A DNA stretch of 64,000 nucleotides. Source: a virus. Its lineage: Duplodnaviria > Caudoviricetes. The notes under the pieces are model-generated. The model worked only from the letters and a program-made list of their open reading frames with translations. It ran no database searches and was not told the DNA's origin. Each line of letters starts with the position of its first letter. Within the stretch, counting starts at the first letter, position 1. Made by a program: the position numbers and the translations under genes. Location of the stretch: IMG/VR virus record IMGVR_UViG_2588253758_000004, one strand, 5' to 3'. Below are positions 649 through 40,450 of the stretch, one piece after another.

Positions 649-1534
649 CGTTTCTATCTAAGATTAGTGTAATTGCTTGACGAAAGTTTGGGACCGACTT
701 CTCTTCGCCTTTACCGCTTGACTGTTTGAGGTAGCCCGAAGAGGTGTGCGTCATTCGTCCGACCCGTACCATTGGGGTGATATGACCATCTGAATTATAG
801 GGGGCGATGTAGATGCCCTGTACGGGTGTTGCGTTGGTGTCGATATAGACATCTGTTACATGCTCGGCACTGCGAATGGCTGCGATGATGTCCGAGACAT
901 AGATAGTCGAATCGAACTTAATATCCTGCATAAAGACGTTGAGCTGTTCTTCAATCAGGTCATAGACCACCGATTCCATAACCGCACCGTCGTAATAGAC
1001 CGATACACGCGGCACCAACACATCACCCTCCCCGCTTGTAACCTCGATACGAGTACCGGCAAACTTGATTTTGTTGATATATGCCTGAATCATCGTCAGC
1101 TCCTCAATATCTATCGCGTGCAGGCGGCCTTTGTCGCCGGTGGCCACTTTCAGAATCAGTTTATTGTCGAGGTTCACATCGCTGTGGCTCTCCATATAGG
1201 AAGCTTGAGTGACTATCTGCTTTGTGCTATCGGTTTCAGCATAACCGAAGGCAAGTCCATCTTCACGCACCAATATCTCATCGCCCTTTTGGTATTGCTT
1301 CAGTGCGTTGATGTAATAAGTCGGAGTGCCGTTAATGCGGTTGTTAATCACCTTGGATATATCCACCGAAAAGAGATCAAGGATAGCCTCAAAGCTAAAG
1401 ACCACAGCGGCAAAAGTCCACGTTATGCCGTTGAGAATAGATAGCTTCGAGTCGCTGGAAAACTCCGAAAGTTCGAGACGTTTGTTGCGCTCCGCCACCG
1501 CCTCATCGTATATCTGCTTAATTGTTCGTGCCAT
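638..1534 (-). CDS. Baseplate J-like wedge protein
   Basis: 298 aa; MARTIKQI start and YINKIKFAGT...IRSAEHVTDV pattern resembling Bacteroidota phage baseplate proteins; synteny. Confidence 0.6.
   Translation of the reverse strand: MARTIKQIYDEAVAERNKRLELSEFSSDSKLSILNGITWTFAAVVFSFEAILDLFSVDISKVINNRINGTPTYYINALKQYQKGDEILVREDGLAFGYAETDSTKQIVTQASYMESHSDVNLDNKLILKVATGDKGRLHAIDIEELTMIQAYINKIKFAGTRIEVTSGEGDVLVPRVSVYYDGAVMESVVYDLIEEQLNVFMQDIKFDSTIYVSDIIAAIRSAEHVTDVYIDTNATPVQGIYIAPYNSDGHITPMVRVGRMTHTSSGYLKQSSGKGEEKSVPNFRQAITLILDRNDEI
661..689 (-). promoter_or_regulatory. Putative phage late promoter AAAC-N18-CTAATCT
   Basis: + strand AGATTAG(661-667)-18 nt-GTTT(686-689), 12 nt before ATG 648. Confidence 0.65.
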
Positions 1535-2456
1535 ATTTGTATGTCGTATTGTCGATTATAAATTCCCACACACCGCCCTCGTTCCAAGCGGGTTCATTAG
1601 TCAGTACCCATATTGCTCCCATTCCCGAGGTGAGTATATAGCGGTTGTTTTCGTCTCGCTCTGGTTCGGCGTAGTTGCCCGATGGCACCGTTTTCATTGT
1701 GATGCGGCAATTACGGCGGTTACCGTGTTTCTGCACTAAGCCAACTAGAAAGGCATCAATGGTCGGCTGGCGATAGACAAAAGTCAAAAGATTCAGTTCC
1801 ATCAACTCCTTTAGCTCAACGAGCGGCATCAGTTTCTCTGTTTTGATACTATCGAGCGTTATCCGAAATGTGCCCCGAAGCATCGGCAAACTATCAAGTG
1901 GCAAGGAGACATCCGACACCTTGAATCGCTCCACCGAAAGCGGTTTTAATATATACATTGCTAATGGTCGTAAATCACTCACATCAAGAGTTTTGAACGA
2001 TGCTTGTATATACAGTGTAACTTTCCGTTTTTCGCCGATAGATGAATCGAAAATATGGGTGATATTTTGCACCGTGTCGGTGAGCGTAATGGTCTCCCCC
2101 GGAGAGTTATCACCCCAATCAACCTCGATATTTCCGCTACCCGAACAGGAGAAGCCGACACTGATTTCAGTGTTGGAGGTGTAAACCTCAACGCACTTAG
2201 GCAGCGTAAAGCTCTTGGGGTAGACGTGCATTTCACCCGATGCCGGAGTGATACCGTGCGTATCGTAATAGGCTGAAACCTCTTTGTTAATCAGATAACC
2301 TTCGGTGTAATTCAGCTCATCACCCGAACGCAAATCGCTATCGAGCGACAAGTTCTCATTCGTTGCCAGCAGGTCGAGAATCCCCTCCACCGAGCCGTAG
2401 ATATGTAGGGCCACATCATAGATATTTTGCCCTTGTGTGATTCTGTATTTACCCAT
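1518..2456 (-). CDS. Baseplate protein with N-terminal LysM/tail-X-like domain
   Basis: YRITQGQNIYDVALHIYGSVEG...N...L LysM-like pattern; ATG 2456 preferred. Confidence 0.6.
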   Translation of the reverse strand: MGKYRITQGQNIYDVALHIYGSVEGILDLLATNENLSLDSDLRSGDELNYTEGYLINKEVSAYYDTHGITPASGEMHVYPKSFTLPKCVEVYTSNTEISVGFSCSGSGNIEVDWGDNSPGETITLTDTVQNITHIFDSSIGEKRKVTLYIQASFKTLDVSDLRPLAMYILKPLSVERFKVSDVSLPLDSLPMLRGTFRITLDSIKTEKLMPLVELKELMELNLLTFVYRQPTIDAFLVGLVQKHGNRRNCRITMKTVPSGNYAEPERDENNRYILTSGMGAIWVLTNEPAWNEGGVWEFIIDNTTYKYGTNN

Positions 2457-3129
2457 TTTTCTCTCTGACCTCCAATAATAGTTCACCTGTTTCCGAGTTC
2501 ATATAGGCGTTAACGACAATCATATTGTCCGCCTCAAACTCCTTTTGAAGCTTCGCTGCCAATCCTGAGTTCTCAAAATTGCCGTGCAGAAAGTCTATCA
2601 GCCCAACACCGGTTAGGGGATGCTGGTAGAGCGTACCTGCCGATGCCCGAAGCAGAAAGTTTTGGTTCTGTGACAGCGATGCCTTTACCAGCAAATCGGT
2701 CTCTTTGCCGCTATACAGGCTCAGGCGACCACCCTCTAACCGCAGGTTGAAATAGTTCTGCTCATTGATTGCTCTGAACTCTGCCAAACGAATTGCAACG
2801 CCATCGGGCAAAGCCACATCAAACCACAACCCGTTATCACTTGCATTGCGAATAAACTCCGAGAGATCGCTATTCAAATCCACCCGAAACCGCACTCTCA
2901 ACTGCTTGAAAATAGGTTTGTAGGGAATGGAGATATGCGCTTCAAGCCCATCTTTGACTCGTTTCTCGAAGTTCTGCGGAATAATGACCTCTCCATAACA
3001 GTAGTTGTCGTTATCAGCCCCCGGCACACTATCGAGCAGCACAAAATCATAGTTCATCTTGCCGATTATATTGTCTGTGGTCTCCAACTCGCCGTAATCG
3101 GCATCTATCTGTATATCTTGTCTTGCCAT
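2449..3129 (-). CDS. Baseplate wedge protein (gp25-like C-terminus)
   Basis: C-terminal GTLYQHPLTGVGLIDFL motif; synteny; ATG 3129 (MARQDIQ). Confidence 0.5.
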   Translation of the reverse strand: MARQDIQIDADYGELETTDNIIGKMNYDFVLLDSVPGADNDNYCYGEVIIPQNFEKRVKDGLEAHISIPYKPIFKQLRVRFRVDLNSDLSEFIRNASDNGLWFDVALPDGVAIRLAEFRAINEQNYFNLRLEGGRLSLYSGKETDLLVKASLSQNQNFLLRASAGTLYQHPLTGVGLIDFLHGNFENSGLAAKLQKEFEADNMIVVNAYMNSETGELLLEVREKNG

Positions 3130-3138
3130 CGTATAATT

Positions 3139-3173
3139 AAAAAAGCCGCCCAATCGTTTAGGAGTGAGCGGCT
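3139..3173 (-). terminator. Intrinsic terminator-like hairpin
   Basis: AGCCGC(3144-3149)/GCGGCT(3168-3173) stem followed by T6 on the minus strand. Confidence 0.65.
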
Positions 3174-3189
3174 GGTTTCACTCTATAAA

Positions 3190-3218
3190 AGAATAGAGAA
3201 AACAGAGCAAGAAAGTTT
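3190..3218 (-). promoter_or_regulatory. Putative late promoter AAAC-N18-CTATTCT
   Basis: AGAATAG(3190-3196)-18 nt-GTTT(3215-3218). Confidence 0.7.
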
Positions 3219-3220
3219 AT

Positions 3221-3561: not shown

Positions 3562-3873
3562 TTATTTTTCTGATGATTGTTGAGTTGCTGTTTGGGGATT
3601 AATTTCATCCCTGATGAGTTCCATAAAGAGCTCAAAGTCCTCGAAGATTTTTAACAAGGGTGCGTTCCCGGGCAGTGAGCAGTTGATGTTGTCATTCTCG
3701 AAGATGACATATCCGAGATGTCGTTTCTCGTTGAGTTCACCCGTAGGCAATGCAAAAACCGATGCTTGGACTTTCGTTAAGGTGTTGTTGGAGGCTGTGA
3801 ACTCCAAAGAGTAGAAGGCATTTCGGGTGCTCTCCTCTGCTGTTTTGATGATTGTTGTCTTTATAATTTCCAT
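3562..3873 (-). CDS. Hypothetical phage protein
   Basis: ATG 3873 (MEIIKTT), 20 nt after a late-promoter motif. Confidence 0.6.
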   Translation of the reverse strand: MEIIKTTIIKTAEESTRNAFYSLEFTASNNTLTKVQASVFALPTGELNEKRHLGYVIFENDNINCSLPGNAPLLKIFEDFELFMELIRDEINPQTATQQSSEK

Positions 3874-3893: not shown

Positions 3894-3922
3894 AGATTAG
3901 TGGATGCGGAGCTGAAAAGTTT
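3894..3922 (-). promoter_or_regulatory. Putative late promoter AAAC-N18-CTAATCT
   Basis: AGATTAG(3894-3900)-18 nt-GTTT(3919-3922). Confidence 0.7.
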
Positions 3923-6900
3923 ATAAATCCCAGTCGGCCGTGCTAAATACTTGAAAACAGAATGAGCCCTCATTGGCCGATGAGTCATCTTGGGTTTGGA
4001 CTTGAAAATAAGTGCTGTAAACTCCCATAACAGTAACGTATATCGGGGTATTGGTGTAATAGCCTGTCATCTGCACAAAGTAATTACCACTGAGATTCCA
4101 AGGGAGATTGATTGTGTAGCGTCCGACCGCAGTTCTGGAGATGGTCATTCTGTTGCCATCGTAGGTTTTTTGCTTCATCGACACGCTCGTTCCGGAAAGT
4201 GTCACGACTCCTGATGCCAATACTTGCAGGTAGTTACCGTACCTTCCACTGCACATCATATCGCGTCGGTTAATAACTATCCACCCGAAGAAGGTTACAT
4301 CATCACCGTAACCGAGCAATTCGATAGTCTCACGAGAGAACGTGATGGTTGATTTTTGTATGCCATCTTCGAAAAAATACTTGCCATAGGGGGCAGTAAT
4401 CGACATCACCCCTTGCGATATTGTGCTTCTCCACTGATAATTCACGATACAAACTCGTCTGCCCGAATTGTCAAGTGTCCACGGCAATGGAACATTCTCA
4501 TCCCAACTACCTCTTGTGGCTACCACGTTGTCGAAGTTATTGAGATTCTGTTGGTTCAAATTAGCAGTATCACCAAAGTTGATGTAGATTGACGGATCGT
4601 TCATTACAAAAGGACTGCGAAATGTTCCTCTAATACGGACATTCGAGAATATCGCTTTTTGTGCCGTAATATTCCCGGCTGTGTCCCAACTTATATTGCC
4701 GTTGGCCAACTGACCCGAACCGTCATTGTTGAGTTTCCATCGTGTTCCGTTGACAATAGAGCCATCAGACGAGAGAGCAACGCTATTTTTGGAGATCTGA
4801 TAGGAGTTAATGCTCCAACCTCCGATATATCCTTTGTCAATGGTCAGTGTGAGTGCATTGATGTTGGCTGCCGTAATGATAGCCGCCCGTATGGAGTCGG
4901 TATTGATACGTGCTGCATCAATTGTCCCTGCGGTGATTTGAGATGCCACTATCGAACCTGTATATACACCTGTCGAGGTAATTTGGGTCAGCTTAGAATA
5001 TGACGAACCACCTAATGCAGTTGTAATGTTATCTATTGGAGCACTCCAATTTAGCGATACAGACGATGCAAATATTACTGTCCCGGCTGCGTTCCAAGAG
5101 ATATTCCCATTGGCTATTTGTCCTGAACCATCGTTGTTGAGTCGCCATTTAGTTCCGTTGTATATAGAGCCGTCAGAACCCAAATAGACGCTGTTTTTCC
5201 AGATATTCTGATTGTCAAAACCCCAGCCTGCAATGCGGTTGTAGACCTGCTGGCTACCGGAGAGTAGTGTATTTGCAGAGAGACAGAAATACTCCAGATT
5301 ATCGTGAGACATCATCTGAACGCCCATAAACCCTGTTTTGATACTGCTGCCTGACGCTGCAATCTGCCCAAATGTAATGTGACCTGCGTTGTTTGTTTGG
5401 TGCCATGTCATCGTAATTCCATAAAGCTTGCAGGTGCCTAAATATATGCTACCGCTTCCTGAGTTTGTTGTCCGAATCTGAATAGGGGTCTGACCAAATG
5501 CACCAATAGCCCCGACACTCATATTATCACTTCCAATGGTGAAACCTCCAATGGTTCCACGCACAAAGGAGCAGGATAAACCATTGATGTAGGTCGTATT
5601 AATAATATCGGATTTGATACTGGCAGCATCAAGTTTGGTGGCAGTAATGCTACCCGTTGCAATTCGGTCTGCGCTTAGTGTGCCTGTGATGATGCTACTT
5701 GCATTGATGGCTACGGCATTGACCTGAGAAGCTGTCAGCGTTCCGGTATAAATACCTGTCGAACTGATGTATGTGAGCTTAGGAAATGACGCGCCACCCA
5801 AAGCGTTGTTAATATCGTTTATTGGCGTTGTCCAGCTAAGCGATACAGCAGCTGAGAATGTCACCGCCCCTGCTGCATTCCATGAGATATTACCCGAAGC
5901 CAAGCTCCCGGAGCCATCGTTATTCAATGCCCATTTGCCGGAGTTGGCAATTGAGCCGTCAGCACCCAGATAGACGTTGTTTTTGTATATCTGCGAAGCA
6001 TTGAGATTCCAACCTGCTATCTGATTGACAGACCCCAAACGAACCAAGGTATTACCTGCCGAATCGGTAGAAAGCATCCCAAAATCGCTGTTGCTCGTAT
6101 AGTACAGCATTGTTCTGTGTCCAGCAGTTGAACTCGACGAGGCTCCAAAAACGGCAATGCGATTATTGGTCTTATCGAGTATAATCTGACCACCTGAAAT
6201 CGAACCACTATTGATTGTCCATCCACCGATTGTTCCCTGCACAAAAGCACACGACAAACCGTTGATGTAACCCACGTTGATAATATTGGCTTTGATGCTT
6301 GCCGCATCGAGTTTGGTGGAGTTAATGCTTCCGGCTGCAATTCGGTCGGCACTGATTATTCCGGCTGTAATCTGCTCGGCAGTGATAGAACCCGTATAAA
6401 TCCCCGTTGACGAAATTTGCGTGAGCTTCGGAAACGATGTGCCACCCAGAGCAGTATTGATATTGTCGATGGGTGTAGTCCAATTCAGCGACACCGAAGC
6501 GGCAAAGGTTACCACCCCGGCAGCATCCCAAGCAATATTACCCCCTGCCACAGCACCGGCACCGGTCGAATCTAATCTCCATTTATAGCCACGAATACCG
6601 GTAGTCCCGATGGTCATTAACCCTGAAGCTGCTGTATATGCCCCCGAAATGTTGTTCTTTGTCCCGAGATATATGGAGTCCGTATCAATTGACCAGCCTC
6701 CGATTTTGCCTTTGGTAACGTTCAGTGTCAATGCCTCAATATTACCTGCGGTGATAAGCGTTGCTTTCAGTGCTGCTGTGTCTATTCTTGAAGCGTCTAT
6801 CGTCCCGGCACTGATTTGCGAGGCGTTAATACGAATGGCATTGACCGTATTAGCAGAGAGCGTTCCTGTAAAAATTCCACTCGCATCAATGTAGGTAGCA

Positions 6901-7328
6901 CCGACCCACGCCAGCGCGACCTCGCTACCAAACTCAACCTTGCCCGTAACGGCGTTGTACTTGATAGATTGATTTCCTCGCCCCAATTGAGCATTGCCGC
7001 CACTGTCGATAAAAAATGTTTTGTAACCGTCCCGAAAGCCATAGATGCCGTCAATGGTTTCGGTGATTATTACCCCTGCATCGTTGCGTGTAGACATTGA
7101 GAATCGCCCCAAGGCAACACCTGTCAATGTATTGTTGGCATTCTTGACCCCTGCAAAGATTTTGGGCGTGATTACGCTGCTGGAATTAATAACGGTTTTG
7201 GCTGTATTCCAATCCGCCACCCAGTCCAACAGGTTTGCATCGACTCCCGCAGGACCGGGCACGCCATCAGAGAGCGTGGATATGGTAATCCACGCTCGTG
7301 CTAATGTTGTTCCGGGTGCTACGCTCAT
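3921..7328 (-). CDS. Tail fibre / receptor-binding protein with internal repeats
   Basis: 1135 aa, G/S/T/I/A-rich; repeated IGGW, ANGNISW and ITAG...IxAxRI units. Confidence 0.75.
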   Translation of the reverse strand: MSVAPGTTLARAWITISTLSDGVPGPAGVDANLLDWVADWNTAKTVINSSSVITPKIFAGVKNANNTLTGVALGRFSMSTRNDAGVIITETIDGIYGFRDGYKTFFIDSGGNAQLGRGNQSIKYNAVTGKVEFGSEVALAWVGATYIDASGIFTGTLSANTVNAIRINASQISAGTIDASRIDTAALKATLITAGNIEALTLNVTKGKIGGWSIDTDSIYLGTKNNISGAYTAASGLMTIGTTGIRGYKWRLDSTGAGAVAGGNIAWDAAGVVTFAASVSLNWTTPIDNINTALGGTSFPKLTQISSTGIYTGSITAEQITAGIISADRIAAGSINSTKLDAASIKANIINVGYINGLSCAFVQGTIGGWTINSGSISGGQIILDKTNNRIAVFGASSSSTAGHRTMLYYTSNSDFGMLSTDSAGNTLVRLGSVNQIAGWNLNASQIYKNNVYLGADGSIANSGKWALNNDGSGSLASGNISWNAAGAVTFSAAVSLSWTTPINDINNALGGASFPKLTYISSTGIYTGTLTASQVNAVAINASSIITGTLSADRIATGSITATKLDAASIKSDIINTTYINGLSCSFVRGTIGGFTIGSDNMSVGAIGAFGQTPIQIRTTNSGSGSIYLGTCKLYGITMTWHQTNNAGHITFGQIAASGSSIKTGFMGVQMMSHDNLEYFCLSANTLLSGSQQVYNRIAGWGFDNQNIWKNSVYLGSDGSIYNGTKWRLNNDGSGQIANGNISWNAAGTVIFASSVSLNWSAPIDNITTALGGSSYSKLTQITSTGVYTGSIVASQITAGTIDAARINTDSIRAAIITAANINALTLTIDKGYIGGWSINSYQISKNSVALSSDGSIVNGTRWKLNNDGSGQLANGNISWDTAGNITAQKAIFSNVRIRGTFRSPFVMNDPSIYINFGDTANLNQQNLNNFDNVVATRGSWDENVPLPWTLDNSGRRVCIVNYQWRSTISQGVMSITAPYGKYFFEDGIQKSTITFSRETIELLGYGDDVTFFGWIVINRRDMMCSGRYGNYLQVLASGVVTLSGTSVSMKQKTYDGNRMTISRTAVGRYTINLPWNLSGNYFVQMTGYYTNTPIYVTVMGVYSTYFQVQTQDDSSANEGSFCFQVFSTADWDL

Positions 7329-8618
7329 CTATTTTGAGATTAGTTCACATTCAAAAGTCGCCTTGCCGCTTACTTCTGACGCTTGTACGGTGATGGTTTT
7401 GGTTACTCGGCTCTCTGATTGTGGAACGCCGCTGTCATTGTACTTGTTCCACTTATAGGAGTAAGTAACACCCGTTGCATCAATCTCTTCACCGTTACGC
7501 CATACTTTGGCGGTCAAGGTCAGTGAGCCTGCTCCGTTCTTGATAATATTGCCTGCCGGAGCTGCAATGTCAATGGTGATGGGGTCGGACATATCCGAAA
7601 GCGAAACGATATCGCTCACTACGCTGTTGGTCGTCCCACTGGCTGAGTCGGTGTCTTTGATAGCACACTTGAACGTCTCATAATTAAGCACCGCACCGTC
7701 TGGAACTATAATCTCATTAGTGGTGTGCCCAGTGATTCCGCCATAGGTGTAGGTTGCATTAATTACACCCCAGTTTGTGCCGAGGGTAACGTCATACTCA
7801 GGGCAGGTGATTGCAGCTCCGCTTGCCACAGCTGTCGTTACATTGGTGGTGAATGTGACTGCTTTGGTGGACGTATTAACGCTCTGCACCACATACGATG
7901 CTGCACCAATGGTTGCCAGTGAGCCCTCAATCACATCGGTTACGTCGCTGAATATAACAACTGCTTGTCCTGTGGTCGCGGCTGCTCCGGCGGTCTTGTT
8001 TGCAAAGACCCCTGCCTTTTTGATGCCCCATTTGTAGCTCACCAGCGTATTGTCAATCTGGTTACCCCGCCATAGATCGCAGTGGATTTTTAGTGAGCTG
8101 GGCGATGCGTTTTGGAATACACTGCCATCAGGAGTGTAAGCAATCGCACATATCAATGCACCGGCATTGTCCACCCTTGCAAAAGCAATGTCGGTTGCAA
8201 ATGGCAGTTCAAGCCCTGTGCGTGGGTCAATAAAGATTGCCTCAAAGCGATAACGCACGGTCGTAGCTGCCGAGAGTTGGTTCTGTTTCACAGTCAACGC
8301 ATACGGAGCTACCGAAGTTGAAAACTCGGTGGTGCCTGCCACATTTGAGAGTGCCGTGCCGTCCTTGTACCACTTTACGCTGCCTGCCTTGATACGCCCG
8401 GCTACACTCATCTGGTTAGCCGTATCGCCACTCATATAAACCGATGGGGTCAATACGAGAAAGGGCGAAGAGGTCCAGTTGGGCGAATAACTTGCTGTGT
8501 CCTTGCTGAAAATTTGCGTTGTAGCCTGATTGGAGGTGATAAACGCATTGATACTTACTGAGTCATTTAGGTCGATAATCGTAATCTGACCTCTTGCGAT
8601 TCTGTCGCCTGTTGCCAT
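7329..8618 (-). CDS. Virion structural protein with Ig-like domains
   Basis: 429 aa; G..FKNG...LTAKVWRNG...YKWNKY...TFECEL pattern. Confidence 0.6.
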   Translation of the reverse strand: MATGDRIARGQITIIDLNDSVSINAFITSNQATTQIFSKDTASYSPNWTSSPFLVLTPSVYMSGDTANQMSVAGRIKAGSVKWYKDGTALSNVAGTTEFSTSVAPYALTVKQNQLSAATTVRYRFEAIFIDPRTGLELPFATDIAFARVDNAGALICAIAYTPDGSVFQNASPSSLKIHCDLWRGNQIDNTLVSYKWGIKKAGVFANKTAGAAATTGQAVVIFSDVTDVIEGSLATIGAASYVVQSVNTSTKAVTFTTNVTTAVASGAAITCPEYDVTLGTNWGVINATYTYGGITGHTTNEIIVPDGAVLNYETFKCAIKDTDSASGTTNSVVSDIVSLSDMSDPITIDIAAPAGNIIKNGAGSLTLTAKVWRNGEEIDATGVTYSYKWNKYNDSGVPQSESRVTKTITVQASEVSGKATFECELISK

Positions 8619-8630
8619 AATGTTTTTGTT

Positions 8631-10469: not shown

Positions 10470-10498
10470 AGAATAGTGCTAAATGACTTCTTGGGTTT
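10470..10498 (-). promoter_or_regulatory. Putative late promoter
   Basis: AGAATAG(10470-10476)-18 nt-GTTT(10495-10498). Confidence 0.7.
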
Positions 10499-10697: not shown

Positions 10698-10907
10698 ATG
10701 AAGAAATTAAATAGACTAAAAGTCGTTCTCGTTGAAAAAGAAAAAACAGGGAAATGGCTATCTGAACAGTTAGGGAAAGATCCTTCAACTGTTTCAAAAT
10801 GGTGTTCCAATAAGATTCAGCCATCCGTAGAGATGTTAGATGAGATAGCCGTTTTGCTAAATGTAGATGTGCGAGAATTATTAAACAAGAGTAAATCTAA
10901 AGTATGA
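10698..10907 (+). CDS. Cro/XRE-family HTH regulator
   Basis: 69 aa, WLSEQLGKDPSTVSKWCSN..QPS HTH; ATGA overlap with hsdR. Confidence 0.85.
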   Translation: MKKLNRLKVVLVEKEKTGKWLSEQLGKDPSTVSKWCSNKIQPSVEMLDEIAVLLNVDVRELLNKSKSKV

Positions 10908-13669: not shown

Positions 13670-13677
13670 TTGAACCT

Positions 13678-15219: not shown

Positions 15220-15263
15220 TACAAATCCTCAATGCTATTACAGAACGAAATACAACAACCGAG

Positions 15264-21173: not shown

Positions 21174-21202
21174 AGAATAGTGCGAATTGGTTGAAATGGA
21201 TT
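21174..21202 (-). promoter_or_regulatory. Putative late promoter (one mismatch: AATC-N18-CTATTCT)
   Basis: AGAATAG(21174-21180)-18 nt-GATT, 16 nt before ATG 21157. Confidence 0.55.
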
Positions 21203-28657: not shown

Positions 28658-28686
28658 AGAATAGCAGAATTTGACCGTGATAGTTT
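28658..28686 (-). promoter_or_regulatory. Putative late promoter
   Basis: AGAATAG(28658-28664)-18 nt-GTTT(28683-28686), 19 nt before the tape measure ATG. Confidence 0.72.
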
Positions 28687-30668: not shown

Positions 30669-30697
30669 AGAATAGTGGAAGGGGACGGTGAAAGTTT
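30669..30697 (-). promoter_or_regulatory. Putative late promoter
   Basis: AGAATAG(30669-30675)-18 nt-GTTT(30694-30697). Confidence 0.72.
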
Positions 30698-31206: not shown

Positions 31207-31235
31207 AGAATAGTGTGATTTCGGTTGAATGGTTT
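31207..31235 (-). promoter_or_regulatory. Putative late promoter
   Basis: AGAATAG(31207-31213)-18 nt-GTTT(31232-31235). Confidence 0.72.
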
Positions 31236-31236
31236 G

Positions 31237-31270
31237 AAAAAAGCCGCGACCTATCACAGGCAGCGGCTTT
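31237..31270 (-). terminator. Intrinsic terminator
   Basis: AAGCCGC/GCGGCTT stem with T6 on the minus strand. Confidence 0.7.
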
Positions 31271-31308
31271 CGCACAAATGATTAAGCTGAAAAATCAATT
31301 TTCTATTA

Positions 31309-31337
31309 AGATTAGCCGAACAATGAGCAAAGAGTTT
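31309..31337 (-). promoter_or_regulatory. Putative late promoter with no downstream ORF
   Basis: AGATTAG(31309-31315)-18 nt-GTTT(31334-31337). Confidence 0.6.
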
Positions 31338-31348: not shown

Positions 31349-31804
31349 CTAAATCGTATCGCCATCGCCAATTTGGATGTCGAATGGGTTCAAGTCGAAC
31401 TCCTTGGTGATGTCGGTATCGTCCTGCTTGGACTCCATACCGTCCTCAGAGAAGATACAGCCCTTCAAGGTTACGGTGGTTGTGGTCCAGTCATCTGATG
31501 CCATTGGGTTGGCAAAGCTGACGATAAGGTCGAACTCTCCGATATCCATCAATGAACCATAAGTCGAGCGCAACATCTGCTGAGTGGCATAATCCATCGT
31601 GATGGATGCCGTATAAGAGATATTTCCAAAACCACGACTGACGGGTTTACCGCCCATTCCGTAGTTCGATTCAATCTTACGTTTCTTGTTCCATTTGATA
31701 CCCGAAACACCCTCAAGTGTGGTTGAGCCTGCCTCGATTCCGAGAGCTGTCGATGAGAGGGTTATCATCGACCACGAATAGGCTACGTTGTTAATTATAG
31801 GCAT
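31349..31804 (-). CDS. Tail tube protein
   Basis: MPIINNVAYSW start, YGMGGKPVSRGFGN, TVTLKGCIF; follows the sheath gene. Confidence 0.8.
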   Translation of the reverse strand: MPIINNVAYSWSMITLSSTALGIEAGSTTLEGVSGIKWNKKRKIESNYGMGGKPVSRGFGNISYTASITMDYATQQMLRSTYGSLMDIGEFDLIVSFANPMASDDWTTTTVTLKGCIFSEDGMESKQDDTDITKEFDLNPFDIQIGDGDTI

Positions 31805-31849
31805 ATTAAACTGTTTTTTAGCAAAGTCCAATAAAAGACACTATGTGTC

Positions 31850-33580: not shown

Positions 33581-33611
33581 AAAAAGGGAGGTGGAGATTG
33601 CCCCACCTCCC
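33581..33611 (-). terminator. Intrinsic terminator after the major capsid gene
   Basis: GGGAGGTGG/CCACCTCCC stem + T5. Confidence 0.75.
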
Positions 33612-33649
33612 CGGGATTAAAGAATCTATGATCAGCAGTAAAGAAAGGG

Positions 33650-34696
33650 TTACGCCTTTTTGTATGCCGTGTGGACCACAATCTCGCCAGGACGAACAAT
33701 GTTTACGTCCATCTTCATACGCATCTGGAAGAAGAAGAGCTCTGAGTTCGCTTGCAGGCGGTCAATCTTCAACACCTCGCTGTCATTGGCGTAGTCAACA
33801 CCCATCCAAAGGTTGGAATCCATTCCGGTGGTGAACTGACCCAACACGATGGTGTGTTCGGGAATACCCACGATAGGTGTGATTTTCTTGCCCTTGAAGC
33901 GGTAGCGGTTCACCTCTGTATTCTCAGAGTATTTCACCATCTTGTCCGAGATGTACTGGTCGTAAGCGTCCCACGCTTCCCAACCGATGACAAATGAGAG
34001 TCCCGGATTGTTGCGGATCTGCTTGGGACACTTTTTCCACATCGCATAGAGGGCGGCTTCAACTGCTGCACCGTCGGTCAGTTCAGTGTTGCCTGAGACA
34101 ACACATTGACCACCTGCGATAGTTTGGGCATCGGTGGCATTCACGTTGTCGATAATGCGTTTGATTACACCGTCGAAATACTTCTCCTTGCCACGTCCGA
34201 TTTGAATAGAGTCTGTCGGAATCGCCACTCCCGCAGCCGCTGCACCACCTTTGGCCGCTGTCCAGATAGCGTTGCCGATGTACTCGTTTTTCTTGTCCAT
34301 CAACAGACGAAGCATAGTCGCCTGCACCTTGGGATCAAGCTCACGGAACACCAGGTTTCCGTCAGGTTGTGCAAACTTCCAATACTTTTCGTAGTCACGA
34401 GGGTTGAACTCCAAATAGACCATAAAGTCGGAAGGGTTCAGGTGTCGCTCGGTAAATTGGTACTCATTCTCGCCGTTTGGACCCTTGGCACCTTGGACAG
34501 ATGTTGGGGTTGGCGTGTTGTCCTGAATAATTTCACCCAGCTTGATTGCCGGTAATGTGTACTTGTGTTGAATGCCCGACTTGATGTGGATAAGACCCTG
34601 TTTGTAGGTGTCATTACCTTGGGCGGTATAGGTGAGTAGGTCTTCGAGAACCTCTCCGTTATACCCATTCTGTAAAAATGATACTGTATCTGCCAT
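33650..34696 (-). CDS. Major capsid protein
   Basis: 348 aa directly after the Clp protease/scaffold gene and followed by a terminator; ends FFFQMRMKMDVNIVRPGEIVV. Confidence 0.78.
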   Translation of the reverse strand: MADTVSFLQNGYNGEVLEDLLTYTAQGNDTYKQGLIHIKSGIQHKYTLPAIKLGEIIQDNTPTPTSVQGAKGPNGENEYQFTERHLNPSDFMVYLEFNPRDYEKYWKFAQPDGNLVFRELDPKVQATMLRLLMDKKNEYIGNAIWTAAKGGAAAAGVAIPTDSIQIGRGKEKYFDGVIKRIIDNVNATDAQTIAGGQCVVSGNTELTDGAAVEAALYAMWKKCPKQIRNNPGLSFVIGWEAWDAYDQYISDKMVKYSENTEVNRYRFKGKKITPIVGIPEHTIVLGQFTTGMDSNLWMGVDYANDSEVLKIDRLQANSELFFFQMRMKMDVNIVRPGEIVVHTAYKKA

Positions 34697-34711: not shown

Positions 34712-35257
34712 TTATTTCATTGATTTGAATTGGAAGTTCTCACCGACCACCTGAGTAACCTTCTCGGCTATCTTCTCTTCGGCGGTTTTGGTCGACTCGG
34801 CAGCAGCTTGAACATTAGCCGGGTCAGCAGCGATTTCCTTTGAGATTTGTTCACGCACGGGAATTCCGGCAAGGGTGCTTTCAACCAGTGCAAGGTTGTT
34901 ATCAGCCATATTTACCCAGTCGGCTTTTGTCTCACGGCTGATTTTTCCTGCCTCGATAGCAGCTTCAATCATCGTTTCGATTTTTGCCTTCTTCTCGGTA
35001 GCCTCTTTTTGCTGATAGGTCGAGAGTGAAGTGGTTGCGGTAGCCAAGTCTTTCTGAAGGTTGGTGATTGCAGCCTCTTTGCCTGCGATAACCGTCTGTG
35101 CGTCTGTGAGAGATTTTTCAGTCTCTTTCAGTTTTGCCTCGATGGTCACCAGTGCATTGATACGTGCCATCACATCCTTCATTTCGTAATTCTCTTTTAG
35201 TCCGAGTGTTGCGGCTACCGCAGCGTATTCGGCAGAGGTTGTTTTTTCTGAATTCAT
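34712..35257 (-). CDS. Nested in-frame scaffold protein (181 aa, MNSEKTT...)
   Basis: Internal ATG after an AT-rich leader, with its own promoter motif at 35283-35311. Confidence 0.6.
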   Translation of the reverse strand: MNSEKTTSAEYAAVAATLGLKENYEMKDVMARINALVTIEAKLKETEKSLTDAQTVIAGKEAAITNLQKDLATATTSLSTYQQKEATEKKAKIETMIEAAIEAGKISRETKADWVNMADNNLALVESTLAGIPVREQISKEIAADPANVQAAAESTKTAEEKIAEKVTQVVGENFQFKSMK

Positions 35258-36001
35258 CGTGTTAGTATTATTTGTTTGATTAAGAATAGTGTTATCGCCT
35301 TCAAAAAGTTTAATGGGCTGATCTGTGGGGAGAGAAGCTGTGATTTCAGCCATCAGATTTTGGATTTGAGAGATGTCTTCAACCCCAGAGATCCCTGCCT
35401 TCACCTTGTCGCAAAGTTGCTTTGAGGTTGGGATTACATTCTCTGTTGGGATGATACCTGCTTTGACTGCCGAAGCTGCATCGAAGAATGTTCCGTCTTT
35501 GTCCGCCTCGCCGCTCATAATGGCGCGGACATGTTCGGCTTTCAGCCCGAAGCGTTTGCGGTAGATGGTTTCGATTTGTTTGGTGAATGCCTTGACCATA
35601 TCCGATGGTTCATCGCACTGGTTCTCTGTGTTGCATTTATCTTCGGCGGTGGGCTGGAAGGGATTGTGAATCATCAGAATCGCATAGTCCCGCATCAGGG
35701 ATCGGTCTGCTGCCGCCCAAATGATGGAACCCATCGAAGCGGCCAAGCCCTCGATGATGCATTCTGTTTCGATTTTGGAGTTACGGATGGTGGAGTATGT
35801 GCTCATACCGTGAAGCACAGAGCCGCCCTCAGAGTTGATAAGCACTCTGATACATTTGGGGCGTACTACATTTTCGAGATAATCGAACTCAGCATTGAAT
35901 TGGCAGGTGGATTCCTCCGAGACCCTGCCGAAAAAGCGAATCGTAGCCACTTCGCCACTTTTCGCTTCGCCGATTATGTTTTGGAATTTTTCTGTGTTCA
36001 T
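34712..36001 (-). CDS. ClpP-type prohead protease with C-terminal scaffold
   Basis: INSEGGSV, GLAASMGS, LMIHNP; ATG 36001, 16 nt after a late promoter; coiled-coil C-terminus. Confidence 0.88.
   Translation of the reverse strand: MNTEKFQNIIGEAKSGEVATIRFFGRVSEESTCQFNAEFDYLENVVRPKCIRVLINSEGGSVLHGMSTYSTIRNSKIETECIIEGLAASMGSIIWAAADRSLMRDYAILMIHNPFQPTAEDKCNTENQCDEPSDMVKAFTKQIETIYRKRFGLKAEHVRAIMSGEADKDGTFFDAASAVKAGIIPTENVIPTSKQLCDKVKAGISGVEDISQIQNLMAEITASLPTDQPIKLFEGDNTILNQTNNTNTMNSEKTTSAEYAAVAATLGLKENYEMKDVMARINALVTIEAKLKETEKSLTDAQTVIAGKEAAITNLQKDLATATTSLSTYQQKEATEKKAKIETMIEAAIEAGKISRETKADWVNMADNNLALVESTLAGIPVREQISKEIAADPANVQAAAESTKTAEEKIAEKVTQVVGENFQFKSMK
35283..35311 (-). promoter_or_regulatory. 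Putative late promoter inside the protease gene
   Basis: AGAATAG(35283-35289)-18 nt-GTTT(35308-35311). Confidence 0.68.
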
Positions 36002-36017: not shown

Positions 36018-36046
36018 AGAATAGGGCTATGGCACAGAAAAAGTTT
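36018..36046 (-). promoter_or_regulatory. Putative late promoter
   Basis: AGAATAG(36018-36024)-18 nt-GTTT(36043-36046). Confidence 0.72.
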
Positions 36047-36257: not shown

Positions 36258-37073
36258 TTACTGTTTCTCGAACAGTGAAAATATCAAGTCTCGCCCTTTT
36301 GCCGTCCAGACCAAATACTTGGTTGGCATCAGCTCCATCTTGTCCGTCTCTTCGTTATAGCGTTTGCTCATTGTCTCCTTTTCGAAAGCCAGACCCTGAT
36401 TCTCATATTTGGGCATCAAGTACCAACTGCCATCCAATTTGCCGATGATGCCTCGTTGCATCAAGAGGCGATTGAGTTCGTCGGCTTTCAATCCTAACGT
36501 GCGAGCCATGTTAGAGACTGGGTAGTTTCTCCGTTTCTCGAAGGACTCTTGGGTCGTTTTAAGTTGCTCGTAAAATGCAATCTTTGGAGCATTCTCCTCG
36601 ATTTGCTGGACAAGTTGCTCGTGTTTGGCTTCAAGCTCTATGGTTTTTAGGCGGCTCATTTTTAGTTCATCAATGACAAAGGCTACAAAGCCGGGATCGG
36701 TTCTCGCCTTGTCGAGCATCTCATCTGTTGCGGTCAATCCAAAGCGAAACAGCTCTTTGATACGGTCGTTACACCACAGATAGAAATCCGGAGACAACCA
36801 TTGGGCAAATAGTAAGGCAAGATCTTCATGCATCCAAGTACCTTGATTGCTACCTCCCTGATTTACAACAACTAAGCCCGTTGCTGGGATTCCAGTCTTG
36901 GCTGATAATGAGCATATTAACTCCTTTGCTTGTTGAGTAGACAACCAGTTACTTGCTCTCTTCCTGAAAGGCTTCGCCATCTCTGTGGCATTCACCATCA
37001 ACTCCCCTTCGCCAATCTGGAACGAAACCGGGGTGTCGTTGTAGTTGAATATCTGTAAATTTTTCATCTCCAC
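36258..37073 (-). CDS. KilA-N + antirepressor (ANT) domain protein
   Basis: VNATEMAKPF, GTWMHEDLALLFAQWLSP, APKIAFY, LVWTAKGR. Confidence 0.88.
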   Translation of the reverse strand: MEMKNLQIFNYNDTPVSFQIGEGELMVNATEMAKPFRKRASNWLSTQQAKELICSLSAKTGIPATGLVVVNQGGSNQGTWMHEDLALLFAQWLSPDFYLWCNDRIKELFRFGLTATDEMLDKARTDPGFVAFVIDELKMSRLKTIELEAKHEQLVQQIEENAPKIAFYEQLKTTQESFEKRRNYPVSNMARTLGLKADELNRLLMQRGIIGKLDGSWYLMPKYENQGLAFEKETMSKRYNEETDKMELMPTKYLVWTAKGRDLIFSLFEKQ

Positions 37074-37079
37074 CGAATT

Positions 37080-37403
37080 TTAATTTAGGGTTTTGTCTGG
37101 TTGCATAAGAAACAGACCCTCTGCCGTATCAGGATTAAACTTACTTTCGAGATATTTGCTGTACATCTCAAGCCCAACACGAACAAACTCTCTCTCCTGA
37201 CTCAATGCAAGCAGACCAAAAACATTTTTGGATAACTCGAAGTTTGAACCTGAAGTGGCTATCATATGCACCGAGTTGTCAAATTCGACATCTCGAGCCA
37301 AAACGATAAATGACTGTTTGGGGTTATTGTCTGTAAGCTTATGTAGCTCCTCTACAAATTCACTTAACTTTTGAAGTAACTCACTAACTTTCTTATCTTT
37401 CAT
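37080..37403 (-). CDS. Hypothetical protein
   Basis: 107 aa ORF in an operon with the KilA-N gene. Confidence 0.6.
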   Translation of the reverse strand: MKDKKVSELLQKLSEFVEELHKLTDNNPKQSFIVLARDVEFDNSVHMIATSGSNFELSKNVFGLLALSQEREFVRVGLEMYSKYLESKFNPDTAEGLFLMQPDKTLN

Positions 37404-37791
37404 TATTTCTATATTTTAAAATTGTTATCTCTTTATGAGTTTAGAAGTAGATACAAATACTCTTTGAAGTATAGTTCATTTCAGATTGAACTGTTTAAAA
37501 TAGATATATCTTTTTGATACTGGAGAATAGATATTTACTCTGTGTTGTAATGATGAATCAATCTATCTATAAGTGTTTTAATGTATTACAAATATTTAAA
37601 AGAGTGATATTACTACTTTCAGTAAATCAATCTGTTTTTAAGTATTAAGAAAAAGAGTAATGATACTTCAAATGGATACTTACTCTTACAATTACTCTAT
37701 TGGGATAAAGAGTATAGTATTATTATATATACTATACTGATATCTACTTAAGTAATAACTACTCTTTAATTATCTATCTTTCAATTCAATA

Positions 37792-38241
37792 CTATATTTT
37801 CATTTCATATAGGTTAAATATCTCCTCTATAACCTCTCTATTCTCTATCGACAACCACTCTTTGGCTACATTATAGGCTATACCCTTACTGAAAACATAG
37901 TTCTCAGGTTTAATAGAGTGATGAGATAATCTCCCTTCAGTTGGTTTAAGATTCAGATTATGAAGTCTACATAAACCCTCATTGTAGAAGATACACCAAC
38001 CTTCATCTTTTTGAATAGCTTGAACCATAGGAATTGTATAATCTAATCTACCCAGAACTAAACCTACAGCCCAACTGGTAGGCATAAGATACTCTTTGTA
38101 ACCTGCATCAATAAGCCTTTTGATATCTTGAGGAGTACCGAGACAAGGAGTCTTACATTGCTTCCTACACTGCTCACATTTACACTGAATAGGTTTACGC
38201 CCGGTCTTACGAATTATCTTTTTTTGTGGATCTTCTTTCAT
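37792..38241 (-). CDS. Cys-rich putative Zn/Fe-S protein (YkgJ/UPF0153-like)
   Basis: CKCEQCRKQC...CIFY...LCRLH...KPTEG. Confidence 0.55.
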   Translation of the reverse strand: MKEDPQKKIIRKTGRKPIQCKCEQCRKQCKTPCLGTPQDIKRLIDAGYKEYLMPTSWAVGLVLGRLDYTIPMVQAIQKDEGWCIFYNEGLCRLHNLNLKPTEGRLSHHSIKPENYVFSKGIAYNVAKEWLSIENREVIEEIFNLYEMKI

Positions 38242-39428
38242 TATCTTTTCGGTTTTAGCATTAGTTCAGGATGTCTGGTGTACCACAGCTCTATGATATA
38301 TTCACGTCCGGCTTTAGTCCACCGTTTTACACTACCTGTTGGATAGACCTTATCGGGAGACTTCTGCCACATATAGGGCACATCGCACTGCAAAGGACGA
38401 TACGGAGCGTGAACAACCCATTGTCGATTTTCAAAATAGATAATACCTTCCTCAGCTAAAAACCGATTGAGTGCCACGATAGAAATTTCCAACTCGTCAG
38501 CGATACGGATGCTGCGGTAATAGTCTCTATTCTCAACAAACTCTTCATAGAAAGCCACCTTATGCTCATCTTCTCGTATCTTTCGGGCTTGTTCGGCAGC
38601 GAGCATAAGAGCCTCATCGAAATTTTGAGGCACAGGGAAATTGCCCACAGCCTCACCAAGGGTTTTACGATATTCCGTTTTGACGTGTACCGGTTGTTCT
38701 GATTGTATGGGTTGCATTGACACATAACCAGTCGAGACCAGCTCTTCGATTCTGGAGTTGCACCAATCCGAAAACTCAGGCGAAAGCCAGCGAGCAAACT
38801 CCATCGCCAATGACTGGTCGATCCACGTTGCACCATTAGCCCCTCGTGTTGTAAAGACCTGACTATCCAACGAGCCGGACTTTTCTGTATCAACGAGCAT
38901 CTGCCGAAACTCTTTGACGTGTGCAAGTCCAAGCCACACGTAGGGATATTTATCAAAGCTGCGAGACATCTGAGTCGCATTGACGTAGGTTCTGCCATTG
39001 TTTGCTTTGAAAGTTATTGGAAATTTGTCTTGATAATTGAAAATTACAGGCTCTTGCGTTGAAGTTGTGGGAGCACTAATTTTGACAGTACTCTCCATAT
39101 GCACCGGCAGGGAGTTTATCCACTTTTCCATTTTATTGCACACCTTGGCAACCATTCCATTCTCTGAGGATATGCTTCTTAGCAACGAGTGCAGGTCAAA
39201 AGGTTTGACACCCCACCGATTGCGTCCGCCGACTTTGAAGGGAATGCGAAAAGCAGATCGACAGATTCGCATTGCTTGTCCGTTTTCAATTAGGTCCACA
39301 CGATCAAGTATTTTGAGGATATCGTACAGACAAAGCCACATTACCGAATCGTGCTGGTCGTGAATGACACGGACTTGTTTTTTCTCGAATCGTATTACCC
39401 CGATTTTATTGTTTAGCTTGTTCATCAT
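38241..39428 (-). CDS. Bro-N/KilA-N/antirepressor protein
   Basis: WLCLYDILKIL, YVNATQM, ATWIDQSLAMEFARWLSP, PQNFDEALMLAA, WTKAGR. Confidence 0.85.
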   Translation of the reverse strand: MMNKLNNKIGVIRFEKKQVRVIHDQHDSVMWLCLYDILKILDRVDLIENGQAMRICRSAFRIPFKVGGRNRWGVKPFDLHSLLRSISSENGMVAKVCNKMEKWINSLPVHMESTVKISAPTTSTQEPVIFNYQDKFPITFKANNGRTYVNATQMSRSFDKYPYVWLGLAHVKEFRQMLVDTEKSGSLDSQVFTTRGANGATWIDQSLAMEFARWLSPEFSDWCNSRIEELVSTGYVSMQPIQSEQPVHVKTEYRKTLGEAVGNFPVPQNFDEALMLAAEQARKIREDEHKVAFYEEFVENRDYYRSIRIADELEISIVALNRFLAEEGIIYFENRQWVVHAPYRPLQCDVPYMWQKSPDKVYPTGSVKRWTKAGREYIIELWYTRHPELMLKPKR

Positions 39429-39771
39429 CGTAGATATTTAGGTTAGACTTATTCTTATCTTTTACGATACGGCGGCGGCGTGCCATATCTCTGACCGAGT
39501 GATATTTCCTCTCTGCATTGCACAACTTGTCGTACTCCTTGAGGGTTAGTTCTGCTAAATCAGTTAAATCGACTTCGATATTATCGTCGAGATGTCTGAA
39601 ATAGAGGGCTCCGGCGGAGATATACTTGCCGTTGCACACTAATGAAATTGCTTGCGGATTGCAGTTTGTTACTTCTGCTGCAGCTCGGATTGAACGAGCA
39701 ATGGCTACTAAGCCAAATGCTCCGTTGAAAATCAATACTAGCTTTGGTTGATGGAATGGTGCTCTTCTCAT
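39406..39771 (-). CDS. Putative DNA-binding protein (NUMOD1-like HTH)
   Basis: SIRAAAEVTNCNPQAISLVCNGK...GALYFR. Confidence 0.55.
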   Translation of the reverse strand: MRRAPFHQPKLVLIFNGAFGLVAIARSIRAAAEVTNCNPQAISLVCNGKYISAGALYFRHLDDNIEVDLTDLAELTLKEYDKLCNAERKYHSVRDMARRRRIVKDKNKSNLNIYDDEQAKQ

Positions 39772-40202
39772 TGTTCTTCTAATAATTTGGTTAAGTACTC
39801 TTTCGTCAACCTGTTTCTGACTACCTGAGCAATATGAGTATCTGAAAGAACAACACCATCCAGAAGAAGCTCTGATACCCTTTCTAACATATAAACAGCA
39901 AAGTTCGGATCAACATAAGCCACAAAAAGCAAGGCCAAAGATTCGTCAATTAAGATATGCTGGGTCGCTTCATCCGTTATTATCAATTCTCCGTCCGATA
40001 ACTCATAGGCTTGTTTGACTGTCTCAAACCAGAATGAGAACTTGCGAGCAAAGTCAATTGGCGAGTTTTTGTGGTTATTCTCTTTGAGTTCGATGTAGAG
40101 AGTAGCATCAAAGTAGGTGGTGCCATTCTCTGATGTTCCGAAAACGAGTTCCGGAAATTCCATATACCTGACAGAAAAAGGAGTAACGGTTTTATATTTC
40201 AT
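39768..40202 (-). CDS. Hypothetical protein (degenerate KilA-N-like)
   Basis: YFDATLY...LIDESLALLFVAYVDP; host-type TATATTTG box at 40240-40247. Confidence 0.55.
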   Translation of the reverse strand: MKYKTVTPFSVRYMEFPELVFGTSENGTTYFDATLYIELKENNHKNSPIDFARKFSFWFETVKQAYELSDGELIITDEATQHILIDESLALLFVAYVDPNFAVYMLERVSELLLDGVVLSDTHIAQVVRNRLTKEYLTKLLEEQ

Positions 40203-40421
40203 TTTTCTTGATAAAAATTATTATACCTCAATTACGCTACAAATATAAATAAAACGACACACAAAATGCGTGTTTTTTATTGCGTAATGTTCTGTTATTA
40301 AGTATGTTATATCTGTTCGCTGGGCAGTTTTTGAGAATTTTGATATAACGATTGCAAAACAATAAAAAACAGACTAACAGACTGATATTTGAAGTTGCTA
40401 TGTATCAATTAATTTAACACT

Positions 40422-40450
40422 CAACTTTTTTTGTTTTTTGCCCCTATTCT
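40422..40450 (+). promoter_or_regulatory. Putative late promoter (one mismatch: CAAC-N18-CTATTCT)
   Basis: 16 nt before the portal ATG, on the opposite strand from the other copies. Confidence 0.62.

Follow-up and report, generated by a model that had tools for sequence, protein, structure and literature searches.

How does a temperate phage switch on its virion genes when these lie on both strands and are interrupted by cargo genes? The question is raised by a stretch of 64,000 nucleotides, hereafter the window, from the IMG/VR virus record IMGVR_UViG_2588253758_000004. It occupies positions 1,779,659-1,843,658 of a 3.149-Mb Bacteroidales genome and holds, according to Pfam and PHROG scans, the virion half of a large myovirus prophage with a Mu-like head and several cargo interruptions. 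With its flanks, the prophage extends over about 100 kb, from ~1,755,500 to ~1,855,500, and shares synteny with BS-TP1 (111.7 kb), a temperate Bacteroides phage that has been cultured. A preliminary description of the window had pointed to a motif before structural genes, AAAC-N18-CTAWTCT (W being A or T), and had proposed that it is a phage-specific late promoter, read by a sigma factor of the extracytoplasmic function (ECF) type, or by an activator, encoded outside the window. The analysis below supports this interpretation, every testable part of which survived, and leads us to a reading that we hold to be likely: the motif is the late promoter of this ~100-kb temperate myovirus, and it is read by the host core RNA polymerase together with the phage's own ECF-type sigma factor, of the two-domain, group 4 kind.

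The exact pattern occurs ten times in the window, always on the minus strand and at the ten places where it had been noticed, against a mean of 0.11 and a maximum of one in 100 shuffles that preserve dinucleotides. With at most one mismatch there are 17 matches for 2.76 expected: these include the two further copies that had been singled out, at 21174 on the minus strand (AATC) and at 40422 on the plus strand (CAAC), and five others that are close to the level of chance, among them an intergenic one at 37468 on the minus strand. The spacing is as strict as had been claimed: among all spacers of 12 to 25 nucleotides, N18 gives the ten copies of the minus strand and the other 13 lengths give none, while the plus strand has one match each at N17 and N23. 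Seen from the second box, an AAAC stands exactly 18 nucleotides upstream of 10 of the 24 minus-strand CTAWTCT heptamers. Aligning the 12 sites, that is, the ten exact copies and the two named one-mismatch copies, yields a longer consensus, TAAAC(T/C)TT ... C-n-CTAWTCTT, in which the letters of the spacer are otherwise free. In 11 of the 12 sites the first box, hereafter the -35 box, reads AAAC or CAAC; the motif has no dyad symmetry.

The motif is also specific to phage DNA, as had been proposed. The whole genome contains 17 exact copies, of which 16 fall within 1,734,340-1,878,474, in or beside the prophage, and one elsewhere. A position-weight matrix built from the 12 sites finds 19 matches of at least 18 bits: the 12 training sites, four in the flanking phage DNA, and three elsewhere. 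Two of the copies outside the window precede, respectively, a unit formed by a DUF5675 gene and the large terminase gene, and an open reading frame (ORF) of 165 amino acids in the position of the small terminase.

Which genes carry the motif? We curated 63 gene starts in the window, 26 of them late and 37 belonging to cargo, antirepressor or early genes, and searched the 100 nucleotides upstream of each, allowing the two one-mismatch forms. The motif is found upstream of 11 of the 26 late starts, pointing the same way as the gene, and upstream of none of the 37 others. The Bacteroidota housekeeping (sigma-ABfr) promoter, which the relevant part of PMC7366714 gives as TTTG-N19-21-TAnnTTTG, is distributed the other way round: the box TAnnTTTG lies within 100 nucleotides of 4 of the 37 non-late starts (those of two AAA_14 cargo genes, of the first gene of the antirepressor block, at 37 nucleotides, and of one early gene, at 82 nucleotides) and of none of the 26 late ones. 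Thus, the absence of the motif before cargo and early genes, and the presence of the host box before several of them, both hold for the curated starts, as does the rule that the motif is oriented like its gene.

The motif-bearing starts form three groups. The first consists of operon heads, namely the portal, the protease, the gene in the position of a tail chaperone, and the tape measure. The second consists of the first late gene behind each opposite-strand insertion: 28658 behind the AAA_14 gene, 21174 behind the SocA pair, and 10470 behind the restriction-modification island. The third contains a few internal points, at 3894, 3190 and 661. The motif is missing in front of the capsid, sheath and tube genes, which are presumably covered by transcripts that begin farther upstream; a strong hairpin stands behind the capsid gene, at 33585-33612.

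The coordinates of the sites are collected in Table 1. At ten sites, the motif ends 12, 20, 24, 16, 19, 26, 25, 25, 16 and 16 nucleotides before the start codon, so the earlier count of ten sites out of 12 at 12-26 nucleotides from a start codon stands, with details amended at three of the sites. At 3894, the nearest ATG is only 2 nucleotides off, and the in-frame ATG 20 nucleotides off is the likelier start. At 3190 and 31309, the motif is followed by a hairpin with a T-run, folding at -17.7 kcal/mol (z -3.6) in the first case and at -22.9 kcal/mol (z -3.4) in the second. The first of these sites spans 3130-3218 and the second 31236-31337. From the second, the order of elements is promoter motif (31309), terminator-like hairpin, promoter motif (31207) right after the T-run, dam gene. 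These hairpin sites could be sources of short terminated RNAs, an antitermination point, or the scar of the insertion of the dam gene.

The copy at 35283 deserves particular attention, as it lies within a protein-coding frame. The internal ATG that follows it, at 35257, opens a nested C-terminal frame of 181 amino acids (34712-35257), and the protease-family matches (Pfam CLP_protease and PHROG) start at residues 44-63 of the longer ORF. Nested pairs of a protease and a scaffold are known from genes I and Z of phage Mu. The frame is probably a scaffold gene nested in phase within the head protease gene, with a promoter of its own inside the coding sequence.

If the motif has a function, related phages should keep it. 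The capsid protein has 280 relatives in IMG/VR, and we examined the best 80 loci (1.42 Mb, with capsids 81-90% identical), turned so that the capsid gene is on the plus strand. The exact pattern has 58 copies there on the gene strand against a single one on the opposite strand, and any other spacer from 14 to 23 gives at most five copies. No exact copy is present in 57 of the 80 loci, because most relatives use the box CTACTCT: following AAAC-N18, this box is found 131 times on the gene strand and never on the other, compared with 33 and 0 for CTAATCT, and 25 and 1 for CTATTCT. Rarer boxes are CTATACT(TGG), CTACACT, CTATCCT and GTAGTCT.

A sharper comparison is obtained by choosing the sites by protein homology alone, and then looking within 80 nucleotides upstream for the relaxed motif AAC-N18-20-[CG]TA-N-[ACT]-C-[CT], the first box being A[AC]C in the case of the portal. 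The relaxed motif is present in 43 of 44 distinct regions upstream of the protease start, in 41 of 42 upstream of the nested scaffold start, in 27 of 31 upstream of the chaperone-position gene, and at the portal start of 60 of 65 loci. It is absent from all distinct regions upstream of the capsid (0 of 38), sheath (0 of 40) and tube (0 of 21) genes. The boxes are kept while spacer and flanks vary freely; at the scaffold site, the flanking coding sequence diverges and the promoter letters are conserved in the 41 relatives although they lie within a protein-coding frame. These comparisons bear out both the expected conservation and the expected bias in strand and position.

In the window, the portal-MuF block (40467-43896, plus strand) points away from the protease-capsid block, an arrangement shared by 9 of 66 related loci, in which portal and capsid genes have opposite orientations; the two genes are co-oriented in 57 loci, and also in BS-TP1 (portal block 54021-56245). 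The motif moves with the portal. Over 117 distinct sites in the relatives, 106 have the ATG of an ORF of at least 50 amino acids 8-45 nucleotides downstream, against 1157 of 5000 random positions on the same strand, and the modal distance from motif to ATG is 15-29 nucleotides. The faecal phage contig MT835494.1 (99.8 kb) similarly shows six CTA(C/T)TCT sites 12-32 nucleotides before long ORFs.

We now turn to the protein that may read these sites. A profile search of the whole genome for region 2 of the sigma-70 family yields nine genes, only one of which lies in the prophage (1,769,842-1,770,033, minus strand). It belongs to an ORF of 203 amino acids (G000:C1:1769509-1770120, minus strand; L001:9810-10421), which is part of the phage replication module, with a Rha/ANT gene and the gene for DnaB as its neighbours; the window begins 9.5 kb to its right. 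Its match to PF04542 (Sigma70_r2) covers residues 30-93 and scores 47.6 bits for a cut-off of 24; it also passes the sigma70-ECF model TIGR02937, with 59.2 bits for a cut-off of 42.9, and lacks regions 1.1 and 3. An ECF-like sigma factor outside the window, as had been predicted, is thus present.

The predicted structure agrees with the profiles. With a mean predicted local distance difference test (pLDDT) score of 76, the model has two helical domains separated by a disordered linker (residues 95-117), the C-terminal one spanning residues 121-191. The top Foldseek matches, of probability 1.00, are ECF sigma factors aligned over about 170-190 columns; the TM-scores are low, as expected since the two domains are mobile. 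The best solved relative is SigH of Mycobacterium tuberculosis. Like the ECF, or group 4, sigma factors (sigma-E of Escherichia coli, sigma-W of Bacillus subtilis and SigH; structures 5zx2, 6jbq and 5wuq), the phage protein appears to have regions 2 and 4 only, and the stretch E-T-x-K-S-R-x-F-L-A-K, in the presumed recognition helix of region 4, is invariant across its family.

It differs from cellular members of the family in being phage-borne and part of a replication operon. It differs also in its surroundings: beside the gene, whose neighbours are the Rha/ANT and DnaB genes, no anti-sigma gene is evident, and there is no motif copy upstream of it, hence no sign of an autoregulated promoter; nor does its upstream region show a clear TAnnTTTG. 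Anti-sigma partners and autoregulation are common, and not universal, among ECF sigma factors.

BS-TP1 has the same gene at the same place, annotated as a sigma factor. With the sigma protein alone as query, only 7 viral loci were obtained. A search was made instead of the IMG/VR records to which the capsid loci belong: of 45 related records, 30 contain a homologue, as do 13 of the 15 that are at least 90% complete. Five records without a homologue, two of them marked 'complete', have no Sigma70_r2 match and no DnaB either; most likely they miss the whole replication arm and are probably fragments. The sequence clusters of the family number at least 201, and their names are all generic. Among species-representative genomes, homologues occur in 42 loci, mostly of Bacteroidales, with three metagenome-assembled genomes labelled otherwise; the taxa include Bacteroides, Parabacteroides, Alistipes, Rikenellaceae, Dysgonomonas, Tannerella, Butyricimonas, Muribaculaceae, Prevotella and Porphyromonadaceae. 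A scan for the relaxed motif within 10 kb on either side of these 42 homologues gives 36 copies on the same strand as the sigma gene and 12 on the opposite one, and is uninformative because the gene belongs to the replication module, far from most late promoters.

A link between factor and motif can be sought in their variation. The flavour of the -10 box (CTAWTCT, CTACTCT or CTATACT) follows the clade of the sigma factor, and not the similarity of the capsids. Records whose sigma is 70-72% identical to that of the window have CTAWTCT, with some CTACTCT; those at 50-53% have CTAWTCT; those at 53-57% have CTACTCT; and a record at 43%, to which those at 49-51% are similar, has CCTATAC(T/C)TGG, farther from the start codon. 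Pairs of records with sigma factors at least 95% identical share the same flavour in 20 cases of 20, and those between 80 and 95% in 32 of 35. Conversely, the flavour differs in all 12 pairs that combine capsids at least 93% identical with sigma factors less than 70% identical. In BS-TP1, whose sigma is 41.6% identical, CTATTCT is kept before the genes for gp23, the tape measure, gp36, the protease, the portal, gp124 and the endolysin; at most of these late sites (c)ACCC stands in the place of AAAC, 18 nucleotides upstream, which may represent a shift of the -35 specificity. The uncertain copy at 37468 in the window carries CTATACT, the flavour of another sigma clade, and may be a real site.

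This pattern is what co-evolution of a sigma factor and its promoter would give. One could go further, tentatively and with more doubt than confidence, and suppose that factor and promoter diversified jointly into several specificities, with -10 boxes CTAWTCT, CTACTCT or CTATACT-TGG and -35 boxes AAAC or, in BS-TP1, ACCC, so that phages with nearly identical capsids and different sigma factors have rewritten all their late promoters. Such divergence may keep related prophages residing in the same cell from switching on each other's late genes: co-resident related prophages are common, and in the present genome the window is flanked to the left and right by related phage DNA.

Taken together, these elements outline a possible mechanism. 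The promoter would consist of a -35 box (T)AAAC(T/C)TT and an extended -10 box C-n-CTAWTCTT, AAAC and CTA always being 18 nucleotides apart. An AAC core in the -35 box is a hallmark of ECF promoters, and the T's that follow it, as in GGAACTT, and the rigid length of the spacer are further likenesses; if the C two nucleotides before CTA opens the -10 box, the spacing becomes AAC-N16, which is the usual one for ECF promoters. As its gene is in the replication module, the factor would be made with the early or middle genes, and it would then direct the host core polymerase to about 14 late promoters, 12 of them in the window, where transcription would start and the virion genes would be turned on.

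The late region would then be made of at least 11 transcription units, and not of one long operon. A promoter would stand at each natural operon head (the portal, the protease, the chaperone and the tape measure, and the terminase genes outside the window), and another after each opposite-strand insertion, where late transcription would restart, keeping downstream genes expressed despite the cargo in the tail operon. The promoter inside the protease gene would supply extra transcripts for the nested scaffold, raising its amount over that of the protease. With boxes ending 12-26 nucleotides before start codons, the leaders of late messages would be very short, in keeping with a phylum for which PMC7366714 states that Shine-Dalgarno pairing is not relied upon.

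Several observations weigh against this reading. A search for sequencing runs listed no RNA run holding this DNA; it returned one metagenome run, guessed to be RNA, with 0.07 of the words, and one run without a label. In the sigma protein, the match to the region 4 profile PF08281 scores 18.8 bits, under the cut-off of 25.7. Of the late starts, 15 of 26 have no motif and are assumed to be internal to operons, and a simple promoter model leaves unexplained the terminator-like hairpins that directly follow sites 3190 and 31309. The flavour of the box is a preference and not a rule, several phages mixing CTAWTCT and CTACTCT sites, and its co-variation with the sigma factor could be due in part to shared ancestry, many of the records being closely related. 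Conservation of the -10 box extends over 8-10 nucleotides, with a TA-like start, and the box is thus longer than, and unlike, the short boxes of type CGT, GTC or TCAAA of ECF promoters. Finally, it partly resembles the host box TAnnTTTG (as TA-n-n-C-T-T), and both are equally far from their upstream boxes, which leaves room for a modified host sigma factor.

It is thus natural to ask whether the host primary sigma factor, of the sigma-ABfr type, could be remodelled by a phage protein, TAwTCTT being a weak host -7 box and AAAC(T/C)TT the site of a phage activator. The T4 middle promoters, with MotA and AsiA, and class II activators work in this way. The two-box layouts are indeed alike: 19 nucleotides separate the upstream box from the TA that begins the downstream box, which equals the geometry of the host promoter, the TA and two T's are common to both boxes, and the many phage ORFs of no assigned function could include an activator. 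However, the upstream box is AAAC and not TTTG, its AAC being an ECF signature, and the downstream box departs invariantly from the host box by a C at position 5 and by the missing final G. Moreover, this phage and its relatives encode a dedicated ECF-type sigma factor, and the flavour of the box tracks its clade. As for a known type of activator, Mor/C (PF08765) has no match in the prophage, the best matches in the genome reaching 15 bits, elsewhere. The dedicated factor and its link with the flavours make a remodelled host sigma the less economical explanation, and we consider it unlikely.

Less probable still is that one of the host's own ECF sigma factors reads the sites, which would wire the late genes of the prophage to a host stress signal. 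The host does have eight other Sigma70_r2 genes, and the AAC of the motif is ECF-like. However, ECF sigma factors usually regulate their own genes, and none of the matches outside the prophage-rich region, one exact copy and three found by the matrix, is at any of these eight genes; furthermore, relatives across many genera keep the motif together with a sigma factor of their own. Just as improbable is that the motif is no promoter, and instead a translational or processing signal of late genes or a protein site for packaging or replication: its closeness to start codons (12-26 nucleotides) and the two copies beside hairpins would suit such a role, but two short boxes at a fixed 18 nucleotides around a free spacer are how a sigma-dependent promoter is built, the start codon lies anywhere from 12 to 60 nucleotides away where a translational signal would keep a fixed distance, no gene follows copy 31309, and copies stand at operon heads and behind opposite-strand insertions, not before every late gene.

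Returning to a late promoter read by the phage's own sigma factor, how does it compare with known systems? In several phages, middle or late genes are turned on by a sigma factor of the phage itself: gp28 and gp33/34 of SPO1, gp55 of T4, gp36 of phiEco32, and gp47 of Salmonella phage 7-11. Part of the literature on T4 (PMC2988020) and on SPO1 (PMC13401047) describes this switch. The logic here would be the same, an early or middle phage factor diverting the core polymerase of the host to a phage-specific motif that recurs in front of virion genes. The differences are that this factor is of another lineage, closest to cellular ECF sigma factors; that the host belongs to a phylum whose housekeeping promoters are themselves unusual; that the phage is a temperate myovirus of ~100 kb, with a late region interrupted by cargo and promoters needed behind each insertion; and that the flavour of the box differs among clades of one phage family. 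SigN (ZpdN), of plasmid pBS32 of B. subtilis, is also a sigma factor of a mobile element, in another phylum, and acts after DNA damage according to PMC6751061 and PMC10601692. Finally, the head module resembles that of Mu, with Portal_Mu, Mu F and a protease with its probable nested scaffold; in contrast to the late promoters of Mu, which depend on C and Mor, the control proposed here uses a sigma factor and a motif without dyad symmetry.

What is new is the sigma lineage, the motif, and the control of transcription in widespread large temperate phages of Bacteroidales; the type of switch is itself textbook. In agreement with the preliminary description, which knew of no account of the motif, we found no description of the motif or of the sigma factor of these phages in the open-access literature on Bacteroides phages, sigma factors and late promoters; the main text of the BS-TP1 paper (PMC12694917) contains neither the word 'sigma' nor the word 'promoter'. 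Phages of this type are common, as the 280 capsid relatives indicate, and BS-TP1 was cultured only recently. The reading predicts a testable switch, made of one small sigma factor and one short promoter, and improves the map of the late genes, including a promoter within the protease gene for the nested scaffold. A promoter behind each insertion could be the reason why defence genes and other cargo sit in the middle of a tail operon. A factor and promoter that the host does not use are also a possible orthogonal expression switch for the engineering of Bacteroides, and, if the specificities of the clades are real, they would form a natural set of mutually orthogonal pairs for Bacteroidales.

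Table 1. Copies of the motif, late genes, cargo and other blocks of the window (window coordinates).
Feature	Coordinates	Strand	Remarks
Motif copy	661..689	minus	ATG 648 of gene 94-648 is 12 nt downstream; the copy lies in the 3' end of gene 638-1534
Motif copy	3190..3218	minus	followed by a terminator-like hairpin (~3140-3175), then ATG 3129 of gene 2449-3129
Motif copy	3894..3922	minus	AAAC overlaps the TAA stop of a 1135-aa gene; gene 3562-3873 probably starts at 3873, 20 nt downstream
Motif copy	10470..10498	minus	24 nt before tail-fibre-like gene 8631-10445 (GTG start), after the restriction-modification/recombinase island
Motif copy	21174..21202	minus	AATC-N18-CTATTCT; 16 nt before gene 20282-21157, after the SocA/Panacea cargo
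Motif copy	28658..28686	minus	19 nt before tape-measure gene 24814-28638, after the opposite-strand AAA_14 cargo
Motif copy	30669..30697	minus	26 nt before DUF6848 gene 30271-30642, in tail-chaperone position
Motif copy	31207..31235	minus	25 nt before Dam-like methyltransferase gene 30696-31181
Motif copy	31309..31337	minus	after the tube gene; followed by a terminator-like hairpin (~31236-31272), no gene
Motif copy	35283..35311	minus	within the protease ORF; 25 nt before in-frame internal ATG 35257
Motif copy	36018..36046	minus	AAAC-N18-CTATTCT; the ClpP-like head protease/scaffold gene probably starts at ATG 36001, 16 nt downstream
Motif copy	40422..40450	plus	CAAC-N18-CTATTCT; 16 nt before the Mu-type portal gene 40467-41792
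Uncertain motif copy	37468..37496	minus	AAAC-N18-CTATACT; in the gap upstream of gene 37080-37403 and a KilA-N/ANT gene
Mu-type portal and Mu F	40467-42585	plus	portal gene 40467-41792; Pfam Portal_Mu
Head maturation protease, ClpP fold	34712-36001	minus	Pfam CLP_protease and PHROG matches
Major capsid protein	33650-34696	minus	
Sheath	31850-33193	minus	
Tube	31349-31831	minus	
Tape measure	24814-28638	minus	
Baseplate hub proteins		minus	
Tail-fibre-like proteins	3921-10445	minus	
Cargo: type I restriction-modification, two hsdS genes, recombinase	10904-18621	opposite to late genes	
Cargo: SocA/Panacea pair	21161-22520	opposite to late genes	
Cargo: AAA_14 ATPase	28776-29993	opposite to late genes	
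Antirepressor block	36258-40202		between the protease-capsid and portal-MuF blocks
Early block	44.8-64 kb	plus	mostly genes of no assigned function

As Table 1 shows, the portal block is the sole late block on the plus strand, the remaining virion genes being on the minus strand. Beyond the window, the left flank contains the replication module (a split Pol III alpha, a primase, DnaB, an exonuclease and an SbcC-like protein), then the large terminase gene, and the right flank contains genes for RNase H, HipA, a repressor-like helix-turn-helix (HTH) protein and an integrase.

The cargo has features of its own. The type I restriction-modification island (hsdR, hsdM), in the middle of the tail-gene region, contains two oppositely oriented hsdS genes beside a tyrosine recombinase, with an inverted repeat of 590 bp at 99.8% identity (15286-15874 versus 17042-17631): it has the look of a shufflon, with phase-variable specificity, that the phage carries as cargo. 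Two cargo units resemble toxin-antitoxin systems, namely the SocA/Panacea-domain protein with its partner, within the baseplate region, and a pair formed by an HTH protein and a HipA kinase near the right end of the prophage (L002:3316-4896). A defence cluster of the AIPR/DUF4420/Z1 type is found at L002:15506-19884.

Partial duplicates with 92-99.9% identity flank the prophage, at ~1,718,000-1,760,000 and at 1,843,659-1,890,600 of the host sequence (G000:C1). They comprise DNA of the terminase region, an integrase/HTH_17 module and several insertion sequence (IS) elements, and they point to another prophage, related or remnant, and to rearrangement by IS elements at a hotspot for phages. A transposase of the Mutator family begins exactly at the right edge of the window.

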